Shown: positions 701 to 62,199 of the stretch, one piece after another | Numbering within the stretch: the stretch's first letter is position 1 | Layout: the number at the start of each line of letters is the position of its first letter | Source: Octopus sinensis | Taxonomy: Eukaryota | NCBI RefSeq assembly: GCF_006345805.1 | Contig: NC_043005.1 | Coordinates: 29,760,001-29,824,000 of the forward strand | Direction: 5' to 3' | Length of the DNA stretch: 64,000 nt | Made by a program: the position numbers and the translations under genes | Notes under the pieces: model-generated | Seen by the model: the letters and a program-made list of their open reading frames with translations, nothing else | The model's database searches: none | Told to the model about the DNA's origin: nothing

Positions 701-1875
701 AATTCTAGGAATCCTCCCATTCATCATAGTCCTTCAGAATATAACAGAAGTTTAAGTCCATTTGTCTGTGAGAATTGCTATATGCTGATGATCCTGTTCT
801 TATTGCTAAATCTGTAGTAGAATTAGAAAAGTAATTCCAAGTGTGGAAGCAAAGCCTGGAATCAAAAGACTCAAAGTTTACTAAGCAAAATCAAAATTTT
901 AGTAAACAGGAAAACAGACAAGACACTTGCTTTTGCTTTCATTGGGGAAATGGCTTTGATATAGAGAAAAAGATTAGATATAAATTACATACATTTCACC
1001 CAATGTAAACTTTTGACACACAAAAAGTGCAGTGGTGCCTCAGGCAAATCACCAGAGAAAGTAGGCTTTGTATGTGGAAGAGACATGAGAACAATAAGTA
1101 CTAAAAGCACGCAGGAAATAGATTTCTTAAAGTTCTGTCAGGAATTCTAGGGGCAGTAGATATCTTCTGTTATGTAGATAGCCTAATTAGCAGTGGAGGA
1201 GGTTGTTCTGAAAGTATTGTTGCTAGAATAAAAACAGGATGGAGCAAGTACAGAGAGCTGTTATTGCCATTGATAAAAGGGGTCTCTTTCAAAATGAAAG
1301 GCAGATTATGTGATGTTTGAGTATGAACTGTAACACTACATGGTAGTGAGATGCAGGCCTTGAATGCAGAGGACAGAGGACAGAAAGAAACAAAGCTAGC
1401 ATAAAAATTGTTTGCCAACATAACATTGCAGTCCTGGTTTAGGATGAATGTTGCTGTAATTTAGCCCCAGGAGACAATATCTCCAGCTGGCTATACGACA
1501 TGATCTGTGTCCTTATATTTTCAAACAAGAGCATTTAACAATATCTCAGCTCAAAACAATATCTGTGTATCATGATTTCTAAACCAGGACTGCCATGTTA
1601 TGTTGGCAAACAATCTTTACTCTAAAGTACTGTTGCTGAATGTATCTCTTGTTGTAAGATTTTAAAATAGTAATTTTCTAAAGCTAGCATACTCCATCAG
1701 ATGTACAAAGTCAGTGAACATAAACAGCAAAATACAAATGTGTTGAGAAAAAATTTGAGCATAAGGGGAATGTGCAAGAGAGAAGACTGTGCTGATCAAG
1801 TGATACATATTGATGGAGACAACTGCATAAATAAATACTGATTGCTTAAGGTTGATGGAATTTGTGAAGATGGAA
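701..1875 (+). mobile_element. Highly decayed RTE-clade LINE RT fragment, split by an insertion at 1404-1679
   Basis: LLYADD-like motif at ~775-795; colinear with the better-preserved copy at 3300-4200. Confidence 0.8.
1404..1679. mobile_element. Fold-back non-autonomous element, family A (internally deleted copy)
   Basis: Same sequence as 32996-33480, in the opposite orientation. Flanked by the 12-bp direct repeat aaagctagcata (1392-1403 / 1680-1691). Confidence 0.8.
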
Positions 1876-2608: not shown

Positions 2609-4680
2609 GAGAGAGGCTTGGAAAAGCCATTATGAAAGACTGCTGAACATGGAGAGTGAATGGGAGGAGGAGAGCCTGCCAAATGTTGACCCAGTAGAGG
2701 AACCAGCTATCCGAATAGACACCTCCCTGGTAGATAAAGCAATTAAGGGTACAAAGCCAAGAAAAGCACCTGGCCCATCAGAAATCACTGCTGTGATGCT
2801 TAAAATATCTGGTAGTGTGGGCTATAGCCTAGTCACCCACATTGTAAACCAGGTAGTTCATGATGGAGTCATACCCAATGACTAGTGTAGCAGCACCATA
2901 GTCAACTGCTACAAAGGTTATGCTCTAGATAGAAAAAAACTACAGGGGTATAAAACTGCTTGATCAGGTGATGAAGGTCGTGGAGAGGGTCATAGCCCAT
3001 CTCATTAGGGAGAGAGTCTGCTTAGATGAGATGCACTTCAGTTTTGTGCCAGGTAGAAGCACCACTGATGCTGTATTCCTAGCTAAAGATAAACCCCTAT
3101 ACTTAGCTTTTGTGGACTTGGAGAAAACCTTCGACAGGGTCCCCCAATTCCTTATTTGGTAGGCAATGCCGAAACTGGAGATTGACAAATGGTTAATAAG
3201 GGCTGTACAGGCCCTATACCGAGAGGCCGTTAGTAAGGTTAGGATTGGCAATGAGTATAGGAAGAATTCCGGGTAGAAGTAGGGGTCCACCAAGGATCAT
3301 CCCTCAGCCCTCTTTTATTCATCATAGTCCTCCAGGCAATAACAGAGGAATTCAAGGCGGGTTGCTCCTGGGAGCTCCTCTATGCAGTTGACCTGGCCCT
3401 CATAGCAGAATCACTATCAGAACTAGAGAAGAAATTTCAGGTTTGGAAGCAAGGTTTACAATCAAAAGGCCTTAGAGTCAATGTAGCAAAGATCAAAGTT
3501 CTAGTAAGTAGGAAGGTGAACACATCACACACCCCTGCTGGCCCTGCTCGATCTGTAGAAAAGGTGTAGGCAGAAACTCTATCAGATGTACCCAGTGTAA
3601 GCTATGGACACATAAGAGGTGCATCAATATCAAAGGAAGATTAACCGGGAAGATAGCTTTCATGTGCGACAGATGCACAGGGGCAATAAACACCACAGAT
3701 GCTCAGAGAAGAGATTCCATTACACTCCAGGGGGAGAAACTTGAAGTAGTTGATAGCTTCTGCTACCTAGGTGACCAAGTTAGTAGTTGGGATGGATGCT
3801 CAATAAGAATAGCCTGGGCAAAGTTTAGAAAGCTTCTACCCCTACTGGTGACAAAGGGCTTCTCGTTCAGAATGAAAGGTAAATTGTATGATGCATGTGT
3901 GTGAACTGCCATGCTTCACGGCAGTGAAACATGGGCCATGACTGCAGAGGATATGTGTAGGCTCAAAAGAAATGAAGCTAGCAGCTGGATGTGTAATATC
4001 AGTGTGCACACAAAACAGAGTGTAAGCGCCCTGAGAGAAATGTTAGACATAAGAAGCATTGAATGTGGCATGCAGGAGAGACGTTTGCGATGGCATGGTC
4101 ATGTATTAGGGATGGATGAGGAGAGATGTGTGAAGAAGTGCCACTTCCAAACAGTTGAAGGAATCCGGGGTAAAGGTAGACCCAGGAAGACATGGGATGA
4201 GGTGGTGAAGCTTGAGTTCTGAACGTTGGGCCTCACAGTAGCAATGACAGACCAAGACCTCTGGAGATATGCTGTGACTGCGAAGACCCAGCAAATAAAG
4301 TGAGTTCGCAGCTGTATCCTACTCCAGTACCTTGGATCATAGGGCGACCTGCTATGCTTGAGGAGACCTATTGAGTCAAGTACATCAACATCAAAATAAA
4401 AATCAAATGGAAATTGTAGTTGTGATATCCATGCTGGTGGCATGTAAAAAGCACCAACCGATCATAGCTGTTGCCAGCCTCCTCTGGCTCCTGTGCCAGT
4501 GGCACGTAAAATGCACCTACTACACTTACGGAGTGGTTGGCATTAGGAAGGGCATACAGCTGTAGAAACACTGCCAGATCAGACTGGAGCCTGGTGCAGC
4601 CTCCTGGTTTCCCAGACCCCAGTTGAACCGTCCAACCCATGGCAGCATGGAAAATGGACGTTAAATGATGATGATGATGA
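2609..4680 (+). mobile_element. 5'-truncated RTE (BovB-like) LINE: pseudogenised RT plus 3' UTR and (GAT)n tail
   Basis: Motifs KAPGPS, LAFVDLEKTFDRVP, GVHQGS-LSPLLF, YLGD, HGSETWAM, RRLRWHGHV and GRPRKTW, with stops and frameshifts. Confidence 0.92.
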
Positions 4681-13816: not shown

Positions 13817-14058
13817 AGAATGAGATAACAAAGCCAAAGCTGTGAGGAAAGAGTTTTCAGGACATTTATAATGAAATAGTCTTACAGTTGTTTCTGGGAT
13901 ATTACGGATATCCCTTCATCAGAGATGGTGTGAGAAAATATTTGAGTTCAAATTATTATGGAAAAGGATATCCATAATATCCCAGAAACAGCTGTAAGAC
14001 TATTTCATTATAAATGTCTTGAATACTCCTCACAGCCTTGGTTTTGTTATTTCCTTCT
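13817..14058. mobile_element. Fold-back insert, family C (Penelope pseudo-LTR-like inverted repeat)
   Basis: Arms ~13817-13915 and ~13962-14058 are reverse complements; carries an HHR. Confidence 0.75.
13878..13926 (-). ncRNA. Minimal type-I hammerhead ribozyme
   Basis: UCU-CUGAUGA-a-GGGAUAU ccgua AUAUCCC-a-GAAA-CAACUG-UA-AGA. The opposite arm shows the palindromic CAGCUG in stem III. Confidence 0.75.
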
Positions 14059-24783: not shown

Positions 24784-24864
24784 TACAGTTTTATATTTAA
24801 GAGATGAGGAATTATTTATATTATTTACATTTGATGGATATTTGTCCTCATCTTGTTTGTTGTT

Positions 24865-24910
24865 AACACAACATTTCAACTGATATACTCTCCAGCCTTC
24901 ATCAGGTGTC
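24865..24910 (-). ncRNA. Minimal type-I hammerhead ribozyme
   Basis: GACAC-CUGAUGA-a-GGCUG gagaguauau CAGUU-GAAA-UG-UU-GUGUU; core intact, CpG-decayed stems. Confidence 0.75.
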
Positions 24911-24961
24911 TTGAGGAAATTTCAAACCTGGGTTCTCATTCTTAAGGTATTTTCTATGTTG

Positions 24962-25009
<48 letters not shown>

Positions 25010-25142
25010 TCACTGCTTGGAATCGAACTCTTGGATTTCGAGTTCAATTCCAGGCAGTGACCTGAACAACAATAATAATAATAATAATAACAACATAGAA
25101 AAATACCTTAGGAATGAGAACCCAGGTTTGAAATTTCCTCAA

Positions 25143-25188
25143 GACACCTGATGGAGGCTGGAGGGTATATCAGCTGAAACGTTGTGTT
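25143..25188 (+). ncRNA. Minimal type-I hammerhead ribozyme with core mutation (CUGAUGG)
   Basis: GACAC-CUGAUGG-a-GGCUG gaggguauau CAGCU-GAAA-CG-UU-GUGUU; palindromic AACGUU in stem III. Confidence 0.7.
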
Positions 25189-26193
25189 AACAACAAACAA
25201 GATGAGAACAAATATCCATCAAATGTAAATAATGTACGTAATGTACCCCTCCTATAGTTATATTTCCGTTTTTAAGTGAAACTTGAACAAATTGATGAGA
25301 AGAAAGTGTTTGCCTTCAGTCTTTTAAGTCTAGTCCACTTCTCTTTTCCCTAAGGTCACTAGACAGATGGACATTACCTGTCCTTCACAGCCAAATGAAT
25401 GCAACAGGGTGGTCTTTAAATTGGAGTTAGTGGATAGCTAGATCTGCTCTACACATGATAGCAAGTGTCTGACACAACTCCATAAATCAGCAATGCTTAG
25501 GCACAAGACAAGTGCATGCAGAACAGTTCTGTCACTCTGCATGCACCTCATGCTGGTCTAATGTAATATTTCCTATATAACAATAGCTGATATGGTTGGC
25601 TGGTTGGTTGATTGGTTTCTCTAGTCATGCCATTATGAAGAGAGTAAATGAGAGATACAGAGGTGGAGAGAGAGAAATACAGAGAGAAAGGGAGAGAGAA
25701 CATAACAAGTTAAATTCAAGAGAGGAGTGTTGAAATTGACAAGCCATGGTAGGAGCGGGGAGGTGAAGATGCTAAAAGTTTGTAGTTGACGAACAAAATA
25801 CATGACATACACACACACACACACACACACATACATACACACACAAAGAATCATAGAGGAGGAGGAAATGACGTAGTTGTTGGTTGTTACTGAAAAAAGG
25901 CTCTGCAATAGTCAATATTTATTGCAAAGAATGGTTTCCTTTGATACTTTCCAAATTATGCTGTTCATTGTCAGAGTAAATTTCTTTTGCTCCAATCCCA
26001 AGAGTATTGACTTACTTAAGAATTAATAACAAACTCTTCCAAATGAAGATATCACTGCAATTGCCACAATAATACTATAACACACTTTTTTCTACATTGG
26101 TTGTATGAGAAAACAAGTACCAGTACTGGGGTCAATGGAATCAACTAGTCCCCCTTCCCCCAAATTTTAGGTCTTCTGCCTATAGTAGAAAGG

Positions 26194-26242
<49 letters not shown>

Positions 26243-26243
<1 letters not shown>

Positions 26244-26446
26244 GGTAGTGAGCTGGTAGAATCATTAGCACAGCAGGCAAAATACTAAGCAGCATTTTGT
26301 CAATCTGAGTTCAAATCTTGCTGAGGTCAACTTTGCCTTTCATCCTTTCGGGGTCTATAAATTAAGTACCAGTTGCATACTGGATTTGATCTAATTCACT
26401 GGCCCTCTCCCCCAAAATTTCAGGCTGTCTGCCTATAGTAGAAAGG

Positions 26447-26447
<1 letters not shown>
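26243..26447 (+). mobile_element. SINE-like repeat, family B, with (ATT)n tail
   Basis: B-box-like gagttcaaatc; further copies near 26110, 27210, 32900-33570, 34450 and 59460. Confidence 0.75.
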
Positions 26448-26478
<31 letters not shown>

Positions 26479-30938: not shown

Positions 30939-32995
30939 GGTGGTTTATATGTTTTTACACATTCTCAAGACATCTATCAGTTTAGAGATTGTTTTTTGGT
31001 TCTGTTTTTTGGTTATCTTTATTTACAGATCTTTACATTTAGATAATTTCTCTGTATTTCCTTTGGAGACACATTATCATTTGTTGAAATTGAGATTTTG
31101 ATTAGGAAGTATTTCCTTTCCTGCTTGTCCTTGACAACAATATCTGGTCAATAAACATTGATCACTTAGTCTGTTTGGATTGGCATAGTCCAGAGTATGG
31201 TCTCTTTGTCATTCTCTGAGACCCTTTTTACCTAGTGTATGTTTCTACATATTTTCTCTGGTTTAGCATTGTTGTTGTTGCTTATCCCTGGTCAAGCAGA
31301 TAAAGATGATGAAAAACACTTCAGCCTTAAACATCCCTTCCTCATTCAGATATGGGGTATGTAAAACTTCATTATCTATTGTGACTTCATTTGAAGGAGA
31401 TCTGACTGCTATTTATAGGAGGTTGAGCAACTACATAGAGATTGCACCTTGGTGGCATTAACATCAACTGCACAAAAGCCCGCAACCGTATTATACCTGA
31501 ATATTTATTCTCTTGCAACCAAGAATCAGCAGCCAGTGAGTATCTGATTGATTTATTGCCATCTTCACATTTTCTGCTTCGTTCAGTGGAATTTGATGGG
31601 ATCATTGTAACCTTGTGTTGCAGTCAAAAATCAATTAATGTCAATTTTTGCTCTTAAAATTCCTCTGGTGCTTTCTCAGTATAAATCTCCCAATCTTGTT
31701 AGAAACTGGAGACATCGATGAAATGCTGTTAGTCCAGTATAAATATCATAAAAATATAACTCTCAGCTGAACTTGGGTGAATTTTGATGTTATGATATAA
31801 TGATTGTTGATGTACATTGAAAAGGTGGTTCTTACCTTTTGTCGATTTTTATCTCATATGTCACTTTCACCTGCCAAGGTACATTGAATACAGTTGTGTT
31901 GATTACACATAAGTGTTTTTAAATATATTTACAAGACATTGATTACTGAGCATTGATTTCCTGTCTCAAAACTGAATTTCTGTTCCAGTTAGTCTTTGTA
32001 ACATTTAAATTACATCAGTAAATTTGTATGTATTTTTTAATCCTTACCATTCACTAATGAAAGCATTGATTCAGTATCAACTTCATGGTAACTCCACTCC
32101 TATCTACAATCGATAAATCCCGATATCACTTGCTTTGTTAGCATTTATAGATGACATAGAAATATTGCATTAATTATTTTCTCCAAGTCCAAGCTCCCTT
32201 TCTCTATTTAAATCATTTATAAACAATTAATATCTTAAATCAATCAATAAATAGTATCAATGAATTCTAACTCACTGCTAGAGGAATTAGCCACCATGAT
32301 GCACAAAAATCGAAGCCAGAGAAATTCAATTAATAAAATACAAAAGACACACATGGTGCAAACAGGAATTCTTTTGACAAGAAGTTCTCTCTAAAATAAA
32401 GTTAAACTTTGTTGCCCCACCACCACCACCACCACCACCACTCTGCCACTACCACCACTCTGCCACTACCACCACCACCACCAATCTGCCACCACCAAAG
32501 AGTGCTTAGTTTTTGACTCCAGATAACAACACTATTTTTTTTATTTTGGTTGCATCTCATCAATATGTAACATCTCATCTGATATGTAACTGCATCATTA
32601 AATGGCCTTGTCATTTTGTTATGGACCCTAACCTTCCCTAGTATATTCTATACCTTGCTGAAGTACCTTGCTGTAGAATAGCCAAACAACAGAATAACCT
32701 CAGTCAATGTCTTCCTTCTCCTACGAGTGTCTCAGAGTGTACCTAAAGGTAAAAAGGTCCCCTGTTCTTTACTCAAAACAATCAGGGAGATTCTGATTTG
32801 GAGAGGTAATAGAAACCAGATGGCTCCCTTCTGTCTTATCACTGCAAAGCATCCTTTATCTCAACCCACCATATCACATTATTTATGAAGAAATAAGATG
32901 GCAAGCTGGTATTTCCTCTGTTTTTATGTTCCTTCAAATTCCACTGATGTTGACTTTGCCTTTCATTGTTTTTTGGGTTGATAAATTAAGTACCA

Positions 32996-33480
32996 TTAGA
33001 AAATTACTATTTTTAAATCTCACAACGAGAGATCTTCAGCAACAGTACTTTGTAGTAAAGATTGTTTGCCAACATAACATGGCAGTCCTGGTTTAGGATG
33101 AATGTTGCTGTAATTTAGCCCTAGGGGACATCGTCTCCAGTTGGCTATACGACACGATCTGTGTCCTTATATTTTTGAACAAGGGAATCTAGCACCCCCA
33201 TTCAGCTCAAAACAATATCTTTGTATTGCAATTTCCAGGTTATTTCCCTTCATCTAGCCAAACATTTATTTTGTGCTGATGAAGGGAAATAACCCGGAAA
33301 TTGCGATACACAGATATTGTTTTGTGCTGAGCGGGAGTGCTAGATTCCCTTGTTCAAAAATATAAGGACAAAGATCGTGCCATATAGCCAGCTGGAGACG
33401 ATGTCTTCTGGGGCTAAATTACAGCAACATTCATCCTAAACCAGGGCTGTCATGTTATGTTGATAAACAATCTTAACTCC
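32996..33480. mobile_element. Fold-back non-autonomous element, family A (most complete copy), inserted in a family-B SINE
   Basis: ~200-bp inverted arms around 33259-33271; 13-bp TSD aaatta(a/t)gtacca at 32983-32995 / 33481-33493. Confidence 0.88.
33272..33312 (+). ncRNA. Minimal type-I hammerhead ribozyme
   Basis: UGUG-CUGAUGA-a-GGG aaauaa CCC-g-GAAA-UUGCGA-UA-CACA. The mirror copy at ~33222-33258 (-) has a 1-nt insertion in the core. Confidence 0.75.
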
Positions 33481-33939
33481 AAATTATGTACCAATTGCAT
33501 ACTGGGGTCGATCTAATCGACTGCCCCCTCCCCCAAAATTTCAGGATTTGTGCCTAGAGTAGAAAAGATTATTTATGAAGAAATGTTGAGAAATATCACT
33601 TTGTTTCATTTATGTTGAGATGTCTTTAGTTATTTGGTGATAAATCCTTTCTTATTGATCCATATTAACTTTAAGCATGATATCCACTAGCTAATGTTGA
33701 TGTGTCTTTAATCATGCTATAATAATGACTCTCATAATTTTATATCTTAATCTTGTCATCAAATCCTGATCTTACGTTGATGTCTCTTTAATCATATTAC
33801 AATCAAAAATAATTTCTCGACAAAGATAATCTAATTACTCTCTTCTCTACTCTCTCATGACATGGTTTTAAAATTAATTTAGAGTTATAATAAGTACACG
33901 TGATGTCCAGCATGATAATGATTCTGCAAGCTTGCCATA

Positions 33940-37035: not shown

Positions 37036-37224
37036 AAACTATTAAAATAACTCTGTATTAAGCAGGTATAGAGAACATAAATTAACATGAAGGTTTGATT
37101 GAAGGTTTTAATTAAAATCATGTTAAAACAAGAAGTTTTTCTTATTGGAACAAGGGCAGTCTCAGGCAGGTTGTTATCAAAAGGGTTAAGAAGAATGTGA
37201 CTAACGTTACTCATTGATTTTACA

Positions 37225-37584
37225 TTAGAAAATTACTATTTGTAAATCTCATAACAAGAGATATTCAGCAGTCCCGGTTGTTGTAATTTAGCCCCAGGAG
37301 ACTTCGTCTCCAGCTGGTTATGTGACACAATCTGTGTCCTTATATTTTCAAACTAGGGAATCTAGCACCCCAACTCAGCTCAAAGCAAATCACAATTTCC
37401 GGGTTATTCCCTTTCATCAGCACAGAGTAATTTGTTTTGGGTTGAATGGAGGTGCTAAATTCCCTTGTTTGAAAACATAAGGACACAGATCATACTGTAT
37501 AGCCAACTGGAGACGATATCTCCTGGGGCTAAATTACAGCAACATTCATCCTAAACCAGGACTGTTGGCAAACAATCTTTTCTA
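37225..37584. mobile_element. Fold-back element, family A (third copy), with a damaged minus-strand HHR at ~37389-37424
   Basis: Perfect 13-bp TSD cattgattttaca at 37212-37224 / 37585-37597; inverted arms; UGUG-CUGAUGA..GAAA on the minus strand. Confidence 0.85.
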
Positions 37585-38332
37585 CATTGATTTTACACTT
37601 CACAAAAGAGCCTCCTATGAGTACTTACTGACTAAAAGTGTTAAGAAAAAAAGCAGTAAATCAATTACTGCTGCAGCTACAAAAGTTTCCCTACAAATTA
37701 CATTTTGAATTGTTGGACTGTAAACATAAAGCAGCAGTAAAAAGGCATTAAGATCTCTATGGTGTCTGGGCATAAAAGCATACCTTTATATGATCACTGA
37801 CGTTTTTGTTGAATGTCCCATTATATAAATAAAACTACTTCTGACCTGGATGAACAAATGTATTCAGAATGCTATCACAGAAACAGCAGCATAATACAAA
37901 AAGAAGTCATCCCTACCAGGTATATTGAAAGCAATATCTTCCATTCCTACAGATGTTACCTCAGCAGAGCATTTCTCAAGACAATACACCATTTTATTAA
38001 CGAATCTACTGCAACTATTCTTAGGTGTGTCATGAATCCCAGAATCCAAAAGATTGAGTTTAACCTGGTTTCCCTGTCATATAAAATGTGATTGGGCTTA
38101 CAAACTCTCCCTGGATGGTATGCCAGTCTCCTGTTGTGTTAACTTCCCAGCTCTTCCTGGAACTCATCAGAGTGAACTGGAACAACATAAAATGAAGTGT
38201 TTTGCTCAAGAACACAATTTGCATCTGTGTTAGGAGTGCAACAGACCAAACAGGCCACATATCCTGCAACCAGCTCCAGCCAAATAATGTAAGCATAATT
38301 TTACAATACTGTAACAAAGATGCTCCACATAT

Positions 38333-57154: not shown

Positions 57155-57275
57155 ATTAAGGATAATCTCTTAATAAGGGATCTTAACAAGAAATTATCGG
57201 GTAGCTAGCGTGAAAACCTCATAAAAGAAAAGAATCCGAAAATAATTTTTTTCTTTTGAACAAATTAATTATATC

Positions 57276-57520
<245 letters not shown>

Positions 57521-61320: not shown

Positions 61321-61325
<5 letters not shown>

Positions 61326-62199
61326 AGATAAGAAAATGGAGAAATACATCTAAATCAAATATCAATTACCAGATAATACTCAATCACATACTTTATTAAA
61401 CCACCACTTAAGAGACTGTAGGTTTAAACATAAAAAAGCAGAACAAATCAGTGTACATAAAGGAATGTACATAAAAAAGTGTACATAAAAGAGTAATGTT
61501 GTATAATAAGTAGAATATATATAAAAAAGAGAATATAAATATAAGTATAGATTACATCTTACAGCTGTTTCGGCCATGTAGATAAGTATGTCTCATTTTA
61601 CCAATATTAGCCTTATATGGTAGGTCAATATATAGATATAAATGAGACATTTACAAAAATATCATAAGGCCTCTTCGGAGATATACATATACATATGAGT
61701 GCATATACTCACACTCCTATACATATAAAAATATACATATACATAATGATGTAAATAAATAATATAAATTAGTAAACATATGTATAAACATATATATAAA
61801 CATATAAATTAGTAAACATATATATGTTCCACATTCAATGTTTCAGTTTTCAACTTAATATTTTATGTACACTTTTTTATGTACATTCCTTTATGTACAC
61901 TGATTTGTTCTGCTTTTTTATGTTTAACCCTACAGTCTCTTATATGGTGGTTTAATAAAGTATGTGATTGAGTATTATCTGATAATTGATATTTGATTTA
62001 GATGTATTTCTCTATTTTCTTATCTTGTATTAGTAATTTGTGGTAAATCATTTTACCTTTGCGCATATAATACAGTAAATGAATTGATTGCATTGCAATC
62101 CTTAACATTTATGTATTAACTTTGTTGGGTACTTCACTAGCAGTATATTGGATATATGTTATCCCATGGAGGGTTGCATTTACAACCCCTATCTTAATT

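Follow-up and report, generated by a model that had tools for sequence, protein, structure and literature searches.

A non-coding hammerhead repeat of Octopus sinensis with head-to-head arms, two fixed outer ends and Penelope-type insertions

Introduction

How does a short non-coding repeat come to lie in a genome as a hairpin with a hammerhead ribozyme near its fold? The question is raised by a 64,000-nt stretch of the Octopus sinensis genome (NC_043005.1, positions 29,760,001–29,824,000; hereafter the window, to which coordinates without a locus label refer). Three related fold-back copies lie in it, two of them with a type I hammerhead core. A preliminary description had read them as reverse-transcribed RNAs with one fixed end and a fold centred on the ribozyme, the palindrome being either made at each insertion, by snap-back or twin priming near the ribozyme-defined end, or mobilised as a unit. 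Comparable questions surround related elements: the origin of the inverted copy and tail of Penelope elements is still called undefined in the available text of PMC8557442, and the movement of animal retrozymes is treated as an open question in that of a recent preprint (bioRxiv 10.64898/2026.07.22.740005).

Materials and methods

Unit positions (u) refer to one natural unit of the family, here called family A (L031:2802–3154), with CUGAUGA at u93 and predicted cleavage after u125. Family A copies were picked by a terminal pattern and, separately, by an internal pattern that is blind to the ends. The initial DNA search enriched copies turning at the hammerhead because its query contained the junction, and loci L001–L041 were excluded from turn-point statistics. 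L102, a 25-nt array, was dropped from all counts and duplicates were merged. L151 and L214 were excluded from substitution and tandem averages, and arms with internal rearrangement from the turning-point and arm-length tests. Statements on published elements refer to the accessible portions of the cited papers.

Results

The related copies of the window lie at 1402–1681, 32996–33482 and 37225–37586, and the 12–13 bp TSDs, common end and hammerhead reported for them were all recovered. Type I hammerhead cores are present at 33276–33308 (plus strand) and 37420–37388 (minus strand). Copy 2 is flanked by the 13-bp TSD AAATTA(A/T)GTACCA with one mismatch (32983–32995 and 33481–33493, starts 32983/33481), and the first 2 nt of its right TSD also match unit 298–299. 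Its long arm (32996–33254, minus strand) runs from u353 to u95 with 92% identity to the natural unit L031:2802–3154. The outermost 54 nt (32996–33049, minus strand; u300–353) lie between the two fixed outer ends and occur in the long arm only; we call them the tail, a concept taken from work on Penelope-like elements (PMC8557442, PMC11167929). The short arm (33253–33482, plus strand) runs from u70 to u299, extending 25 nt beyond the long arm in the 5' direction, with a non-duplicated centre (33255–33277, plus strand) and short microhomology at the junction. The inverted repeat measures 209 bp at 90% identity, and its RNA fold has a z score of −38.8. The hammerhead of copy 2 (33262–33320, plus strand), identified by motif scan and by covariation over three families, has the core CTGATGA at 33276–33282, GAAA, a 1-bp stem III and a near-palindromic loop, with cleavage predicted after 33308. 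The ribozymes had been described as back-to-back, which does not hold: the core of the minus-strand motif in copy 2 is cut (CTAGATGA) and the 5' strand of the motif's stem I is absent, and copy 1 is coreless.

In copy 1, the 12-bp TSD AAAGCTAGCATA (1392–1403 and 1680–1691, starts 1392/1680) encloses, by alignment to the unit, a short arm without the hammerhead core (1402–1579, minus strand; about u293 to u114) and a long arm (1579–1681, plus strand; u253 to u353). Copy 3 has the 13-bp TSD CATTGATTTTACA (37212–37224 and 37585–37597, starts 37212/37585), a long arm with internal deletions that includes the core at 37420–37388 (37225–37420, minus strand), and a short arm from about u126 to u298 (37421–37586, plus strand). 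Both strands of hammerhead stem I are used at its turn.

Copy 2 interrupts a short interspersed repeat: its flanks map to 26310–26371 and 26359–26452, and the intact repeat at about 26243–26452 contains the 13-mer once (26359–26371). Copy 1 interrupts a LINE RT fragment, with flanks collinear to 3792–3983 and 3975–4164 (RVT_1 match). The intact repeat with its single 13-mer and the collinear LINE flanks therefore identify copies 2 and 1 as true insertions, as had been proposed. Their hosts had been named as a SINE and an RTE, and the assignment stands at the level of a short interspersed repeat and a LINE. The family split by copy 1 is represented at 2610–4222 by a decayed LINE in which RVT_1 and a PHD finger are recognisable. 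Elsewhere in the window, each arm of another fold-back (24811–25242) contains hammerhead-like core sequence; the element has an apparent TSD, and its sequence is unrelated to family A. A fold-back at 13817–14058 with a hammerhead-like core (13922–13883, minus strand) is probably a further Penelope-type family. Inverted-repeat elements also lie at 61321–62030 (96% arms) and 57270–57417 (93% arms).

The family A unit is 353 nt long and forms more than three tandem units at L031. It folds far better than shuffled sequences (z −5.0) and is strongly self-paired; local folds of the hammerhead alone and of the tail alone were no better than shuffles. A dimer of the unit contains no long ORF. The type I hammerhead of the unit combines a palindromic loop with a helix III of 1 bp, an architecture described as dimer-dependent (PMC4209133). 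Among 7 sequences from 3 related families, 96% of cells are paired and 10 of 15 pairs show two-sided change, in a structure drawn from these same 7 sequences, which inflates the comparison with controls. The core is intact in 113 of the 153 arms covering it, and an Rfam scan returned nothing at the gathering threshold. Exact pattern matches in the host genome number 530 and 770; at a divergence of about 5%, these counts suggest roughly 2,000 family A insertions. Upstream of the hammerhead, a hairpin followed by a TATA-like motif (L031:2825–2843), kept in the related family B with different letters, is a possible promoter. Pieces smaller than the unit have been amplified into satellites, namely 160-nt repeats ending at unit 298 (L214:1246–2942) and a 25-nt array from unit 225–247 (L102:5–1177).

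A typical insertion consists of two head-to-head arms whose outer ends lie at fixed sites 54 nt apart, u353 and about u299. The end opposite to the one reported as fixed is thus fixed as well. Among 143 distinct family A insertions, 86 combine a long and a short end, one is long/long (353/353) and none is short/short (299/299); the others are single-orientation (27), complex (3) or show erosion or a different end point on one side or both (26). About 60% of the copies therefore display the complete layout with two fixed ends. The internal-pattern set gave 50 mixed and no same-type pairs (n = 82), against at most one half mixed if the start sites were chosen independently. Of 116 long/short insertions, 86 had a TSD, compared with 3 of 300 mismatched-flank controls; TSD lengths range from 8 to 17 bp, with 12–13 bp in 41 of the 86. 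The terminal 30 nt are on average 38% and at most 53% identical to the reverse complement of the opposite end (116 insertions), indicating no terminal inverted repeats, and the examined copies show no LTR layout. Targets match unit 296–299 (ACAA) at frequencies of 0.63/0.49/0.72/0.57 and unit 352–353 (AA) at 0.51/0.70, so that target and unit share 1–4 nt at both ends; the TSD scoring procedure may contribute a small part of this match. The variable TSDs and non-inverted termini support reverse-transcribed, target-primed insertions of Penelope type rather than MITEs, in agreement with the original view of reverse-transcribed RNAs. Symmetric terminal inverted repeats with a constant TSD length, the outcome that had been named as contradicting that view and the hallmark of MITEs and TIR transposons, were not observed.

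Whether the arms of a copy are nearer to each other than to other copies had been put forward as a check, and they are: family A arms differ by 9.3% within and 10.0% between copies (60/89, p = 8e-4). Rare variants are common to both arms in 8.8% versus 1.3%, and non-CpG variants in 61 cases versus 19.6 expected. CpG decay shows no excess sharing (48 versus 44.8 by permutation, p = 0.28), which argues against later gene conversion. Family B, a younger sister with a 351-nt unit (63% identity to A), a 44-nt tail and TA-microsatellite targets, gave a sharper picture. Its copies (L275:1460–1810 and L272–L353) are 95–99% identical, with ends at 308 and 351 and targets of (TA)n. End pairing was long/short in 47 and same-type in none (n = 67), and the distance was 2.2% within versus 3.8% between copies (42/45, p = 2e-11). 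None of 203 cells at 10 diagnostic columns was discordant; an eleventh column (194) was discordant in 4 of 25. Column 285 of family A was discordant in 20 of 103, more than family B would suggest, and may be a mutable site. The variants shared by both arms show one source locus, not strictly one molecule. Six A-to-G changes in both arms of L072:847–1414 and four in L025:1501–1975 suggest an A-to-I edited RNA template, and a family-wide A-to-G excess was not significant (ratio 1.13, p = 0.11). Two or more further related hammerhead units exist (L238:3020–3264 with L354–L365; L248:186–348), and the L238 family yielded 2731 first-look candidates with two recurring end points about 59 nt apart.

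We consider it probable that this non-coding 353-nt hammerhead unit is a non-autonomous Penelope-like retroposon (non-LTR retrozyme) whose arms are two cDNAs of the same source RNA, one started from each end of the target DNA. The staggered cut in the target would be made in trans by the GIY-YIG endonuclease/RT of a Penelope element. Synthesis would be primed at unit 353 by one target 3' end and at unit 299 by its counterpart, aided by the 1–4 nt of pairing, on an RNA that would be an uncleaved multimer or a circle. The RT starting at 299 would lead, both RTs would stop early, and the cDNA 3' ends would be joined via microhomology. The ribozyme may shape the RNA, as monomer or circle, without setting the fold.

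The strongest alternative is self-priming by snap-back: the first cDNA, begun at u353, would fold back and be copied until bound protein or resolution by the endonuclease stopped the copying at u299, and the hairpin tip would afterwards be resected or deleted. Palindromic junctions of Penelope have been attributed to self-priming in a published proposal (PMC3846280), and the tail to endonuclease resolution in another (PMC8557442); the scheme accounts together for the strict one-of-each ends and the same-source arms. It also predicts the excess of near-symmetric turns (within 20 nt in 24 of 80 insertions versus 10.2 expected for A, and in 16 of 44 versus 5.7 for B) and the correlated arm lengths of family B (rho = 0.42). 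These two observations count against priming from both target ends, although near-symmetric turns would also be expected from two RTs halted by one break in the RNA. Snap-back, however, requires the short arm to be nested in the long arm, and this is so in only 34 of 80 (A) and 16 of 44 (B). Moreover, a lead of more than 20 nt in the 5' direction is about twice as frequent for the short arm as for the long arm (38 versus 18 in A, 19 versus 9 in B), where unbiased tip deletion predicts equal numbers, and the unique centre of window copy 2 is in short-arm orientation. The lead of the short arm thus speaks against simple snap-back as the principal pathway and for priming from both ends of the target, and we regard snap-back as unlikely.

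The inner ends bear on the second alternative, that the 5' end of a ribozyme-cleaved RNA sets the fold-back point. In each window copy one arm ends in the hammerhead region (u114, u70/95 and about u126), an agreement that three copies can attain by chance, and the short arm of copy 3 begins at about the predicted cleavage site. In the family as a whole, inner ends are scattered over the entire unit with no pile-up at the hammerhead. Only 10 of 160 are located about 6 nt or less from the cleavage site, as in neighbouring bins (1–19), and both inner ends fall in u60–130 in only 8 of 80 insertions; turning at the hammerhead is thus not the family trait it had been taken for. The cleavage site is read through in 46 of 80 insertions, contrary to a fold set by a ribozyme-defined end, and the unit junction is crossed by 19 arms. 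Most turns have 1–6 nt overlap. In the 19 copies that do turn at the hammerhead, the junctions are mostly different and the centre is carried by either arm. Fold-back points unrelated to the hammerhead had been named beforehand as the result that would contradict a ribozyme-centred fold, and this is what their map gives. A ribozyme-set fold is therefore very improbable, the cleaved RNA end being at most a minor contributor. The fold is formed per insertion, as one branch of the preliminary description held, and the scattered turns and the read-through of site and unit junction point to an uncleaved multimer or circle as template. Long arms ending at one unit plus tail, as in a collision with the second primer, numbered 4/8 and 2/6, counts too small to establish a pile-up.

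Movement of the palindrome as a whole, whether through retro-copying of a hairpin RNA or in the manner of a MITE-like DNA transposon, would explain the near-identical junctions of a few copies (L004, L012 and L016; L001 and L010), but it is largely refuted already and hardly credible, given that junctions otherwise vary between copies, that family A long arms are 9.8% apart from each other and 10.2% from the short arms of other copies, and that the termini and TSD lengths are those described above.

An autonomous partner was sought. GIY-YIG Penelope-like elements (PLEs) are abundant in the host genome (147 scored of 5029 candidates), and RT plus GIY-YIG ORFs are present. The family A unit served as pLTR in none of 50 GIY-YIG loci, a small sample of the 5029 candidates, and the autonomous PLE with the same terminus that had been proposed as a search target was not among them. 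No partner was found beside about 200 family A copies, by local alignment of 10 PLE 3' ends, by tblastn on family A, B and C loci or by all-versus-all flank comparison. In tblastn with 6 PLE proteins against family A loci, only L047 matched, outside its TSD-bounded insertion, so that no RT plus GIY-YIG ORF lies within the element. The 63–68% matches in L254 and L238 are sister non-coding families. The L254 match was rejected as a pLTR, being a separate non-coding sister family that adjoins a PLE with a different 3' hammerhead-like motif. PLEs of the L254/L264 type carry a hammerhead-like motif near the 3' end. L252–L258 are young Penelope-like elements with open RT and GIY-YIG frames of 775–781 aa, and L255, L257 and L258 are about 99% identical.

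Three runs of raw RNA reads contained 1273–1673 family A reads each, in both directions about equally, and 56–64% of these continue into unlike sequence. No pile-up of read starts or ends was seen at the ribozyme site in the three runs. The reads are compatible with passive transcription inside host RNAs; a re-ligated circle would read like a tandem, and the reads neither show nor exclude circles. A>G differences occurred at 16–22 places and T>C at 9–11, in a comparison made on RNA reads.

Discussion

We conclude that the window copies belong to an ordinary, abundant, non-coding instance of the known non-autonomous Penelope/retrozyme class. A bolder reading, which we hold only tentatively and think may well be wrong, is that an obligate two-primer reaction on one RNA, perhaps a retrozyme circle, underlies Penelope-type insertion: a dimeric RT would straddle the tail and start one cDNA per side, each on its own target strand, and the RT on the 5' side would lead. 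If true, these families would be direct genomic proof of animal retrozymes moved by Penelope machinery, and of a rolling, dual-primed reverse transcription in which RNA edits are sometimes copied into both arms.

Hundreds of short insertions, bounded by TSDs and legible at both ends, form a natural dataset on Penelope insertion. They offer rules for any reconstituted reaction: one of each start site, one source, a leading short arm and ribozyme read-through. Such hairpins are also liable to misfiling as MITEs. On transcription, every copy would give a duplex of 100–200 bp that could be edited.

Two familiar systems invite comparison by shape. In L1 twin priming, cDNA synthesis on one RNA is primed from both target ends, and the outcome is a 5' inversion whose turn shows microhomology; the segments are essentially non-overlapping and the second site is variable, whereas in family A the arms repeat the same stretch of sequence and neither site varies. 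MITEs and foldback DNA transposons are, like family A, short, non-coding, hairpin-shaped and abundant. Family A differs from them in having no terminal inverted repeats, a long TSD of variable length, a variable centre, a ribozyme and an origin from tandem units.

Canonical EN+ Penelope-like insertions have a pLTR, an adjoining inverted 5'-truncated copy and a 30–40 bp tail at one end (PMC8557442, PMC3846280), and those of Adineta have TSDs of 8–10 bp (PMC8557442/PMC3846280). Family A has in common with EN+ elements the head-to-head inverted copy, the one-end tail (both present in 86/143), partial tandems, a type I hammerhead and AT-rich targets. It differs in being without any ORF, in its longer tail of 54 nt (44 in family B), and in that no matching autonomous element was found. 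The Poseidon_Ac protein of the anole cut and extended both strands in vitro, with two internal start sites bounding the tail and hammerhead cleavage dispensable; the start sites were used without strand preference and homology at priming was not observed (PMC11167929). Finished family A insertions, in contrast, comprise one of each site and show 1–4 nt of target homology. The available text of the Penelope and retrozyme literature gave no account of family A, of a strict pairing rule or of same-source statistics; the supplements of PMC11167929 (Figs S1–S2) and the preprint may bear on pairing.

Metazoan non-LTR retrozymes are the closest in the unit itself. In mussel, tandem type I hammerhead units of 350–390 nt are expressed as circles (PMC7229834), and the preprint links such retrozymes to pLTRs (bioRxiv 10.64898/2026.07.22.740005). 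Family A shares with them a non-coding, low-GC tandem unit of about 350 nt (range of the class about 170–400 nt), one type I hammerhead per unit with a weak palindromic helix III, self-pairing of the unit, TSDs above 4 bp and co-occurrence with PLEs (PMC7229834; bioRxiv 10.64898/2026.07.22.740005). The word "inverted" has no occurrence in the accessible text of PMC7229834. Unlike these retrozymes, family A consists mostly of dispersed fold-back copies rather than arrays.
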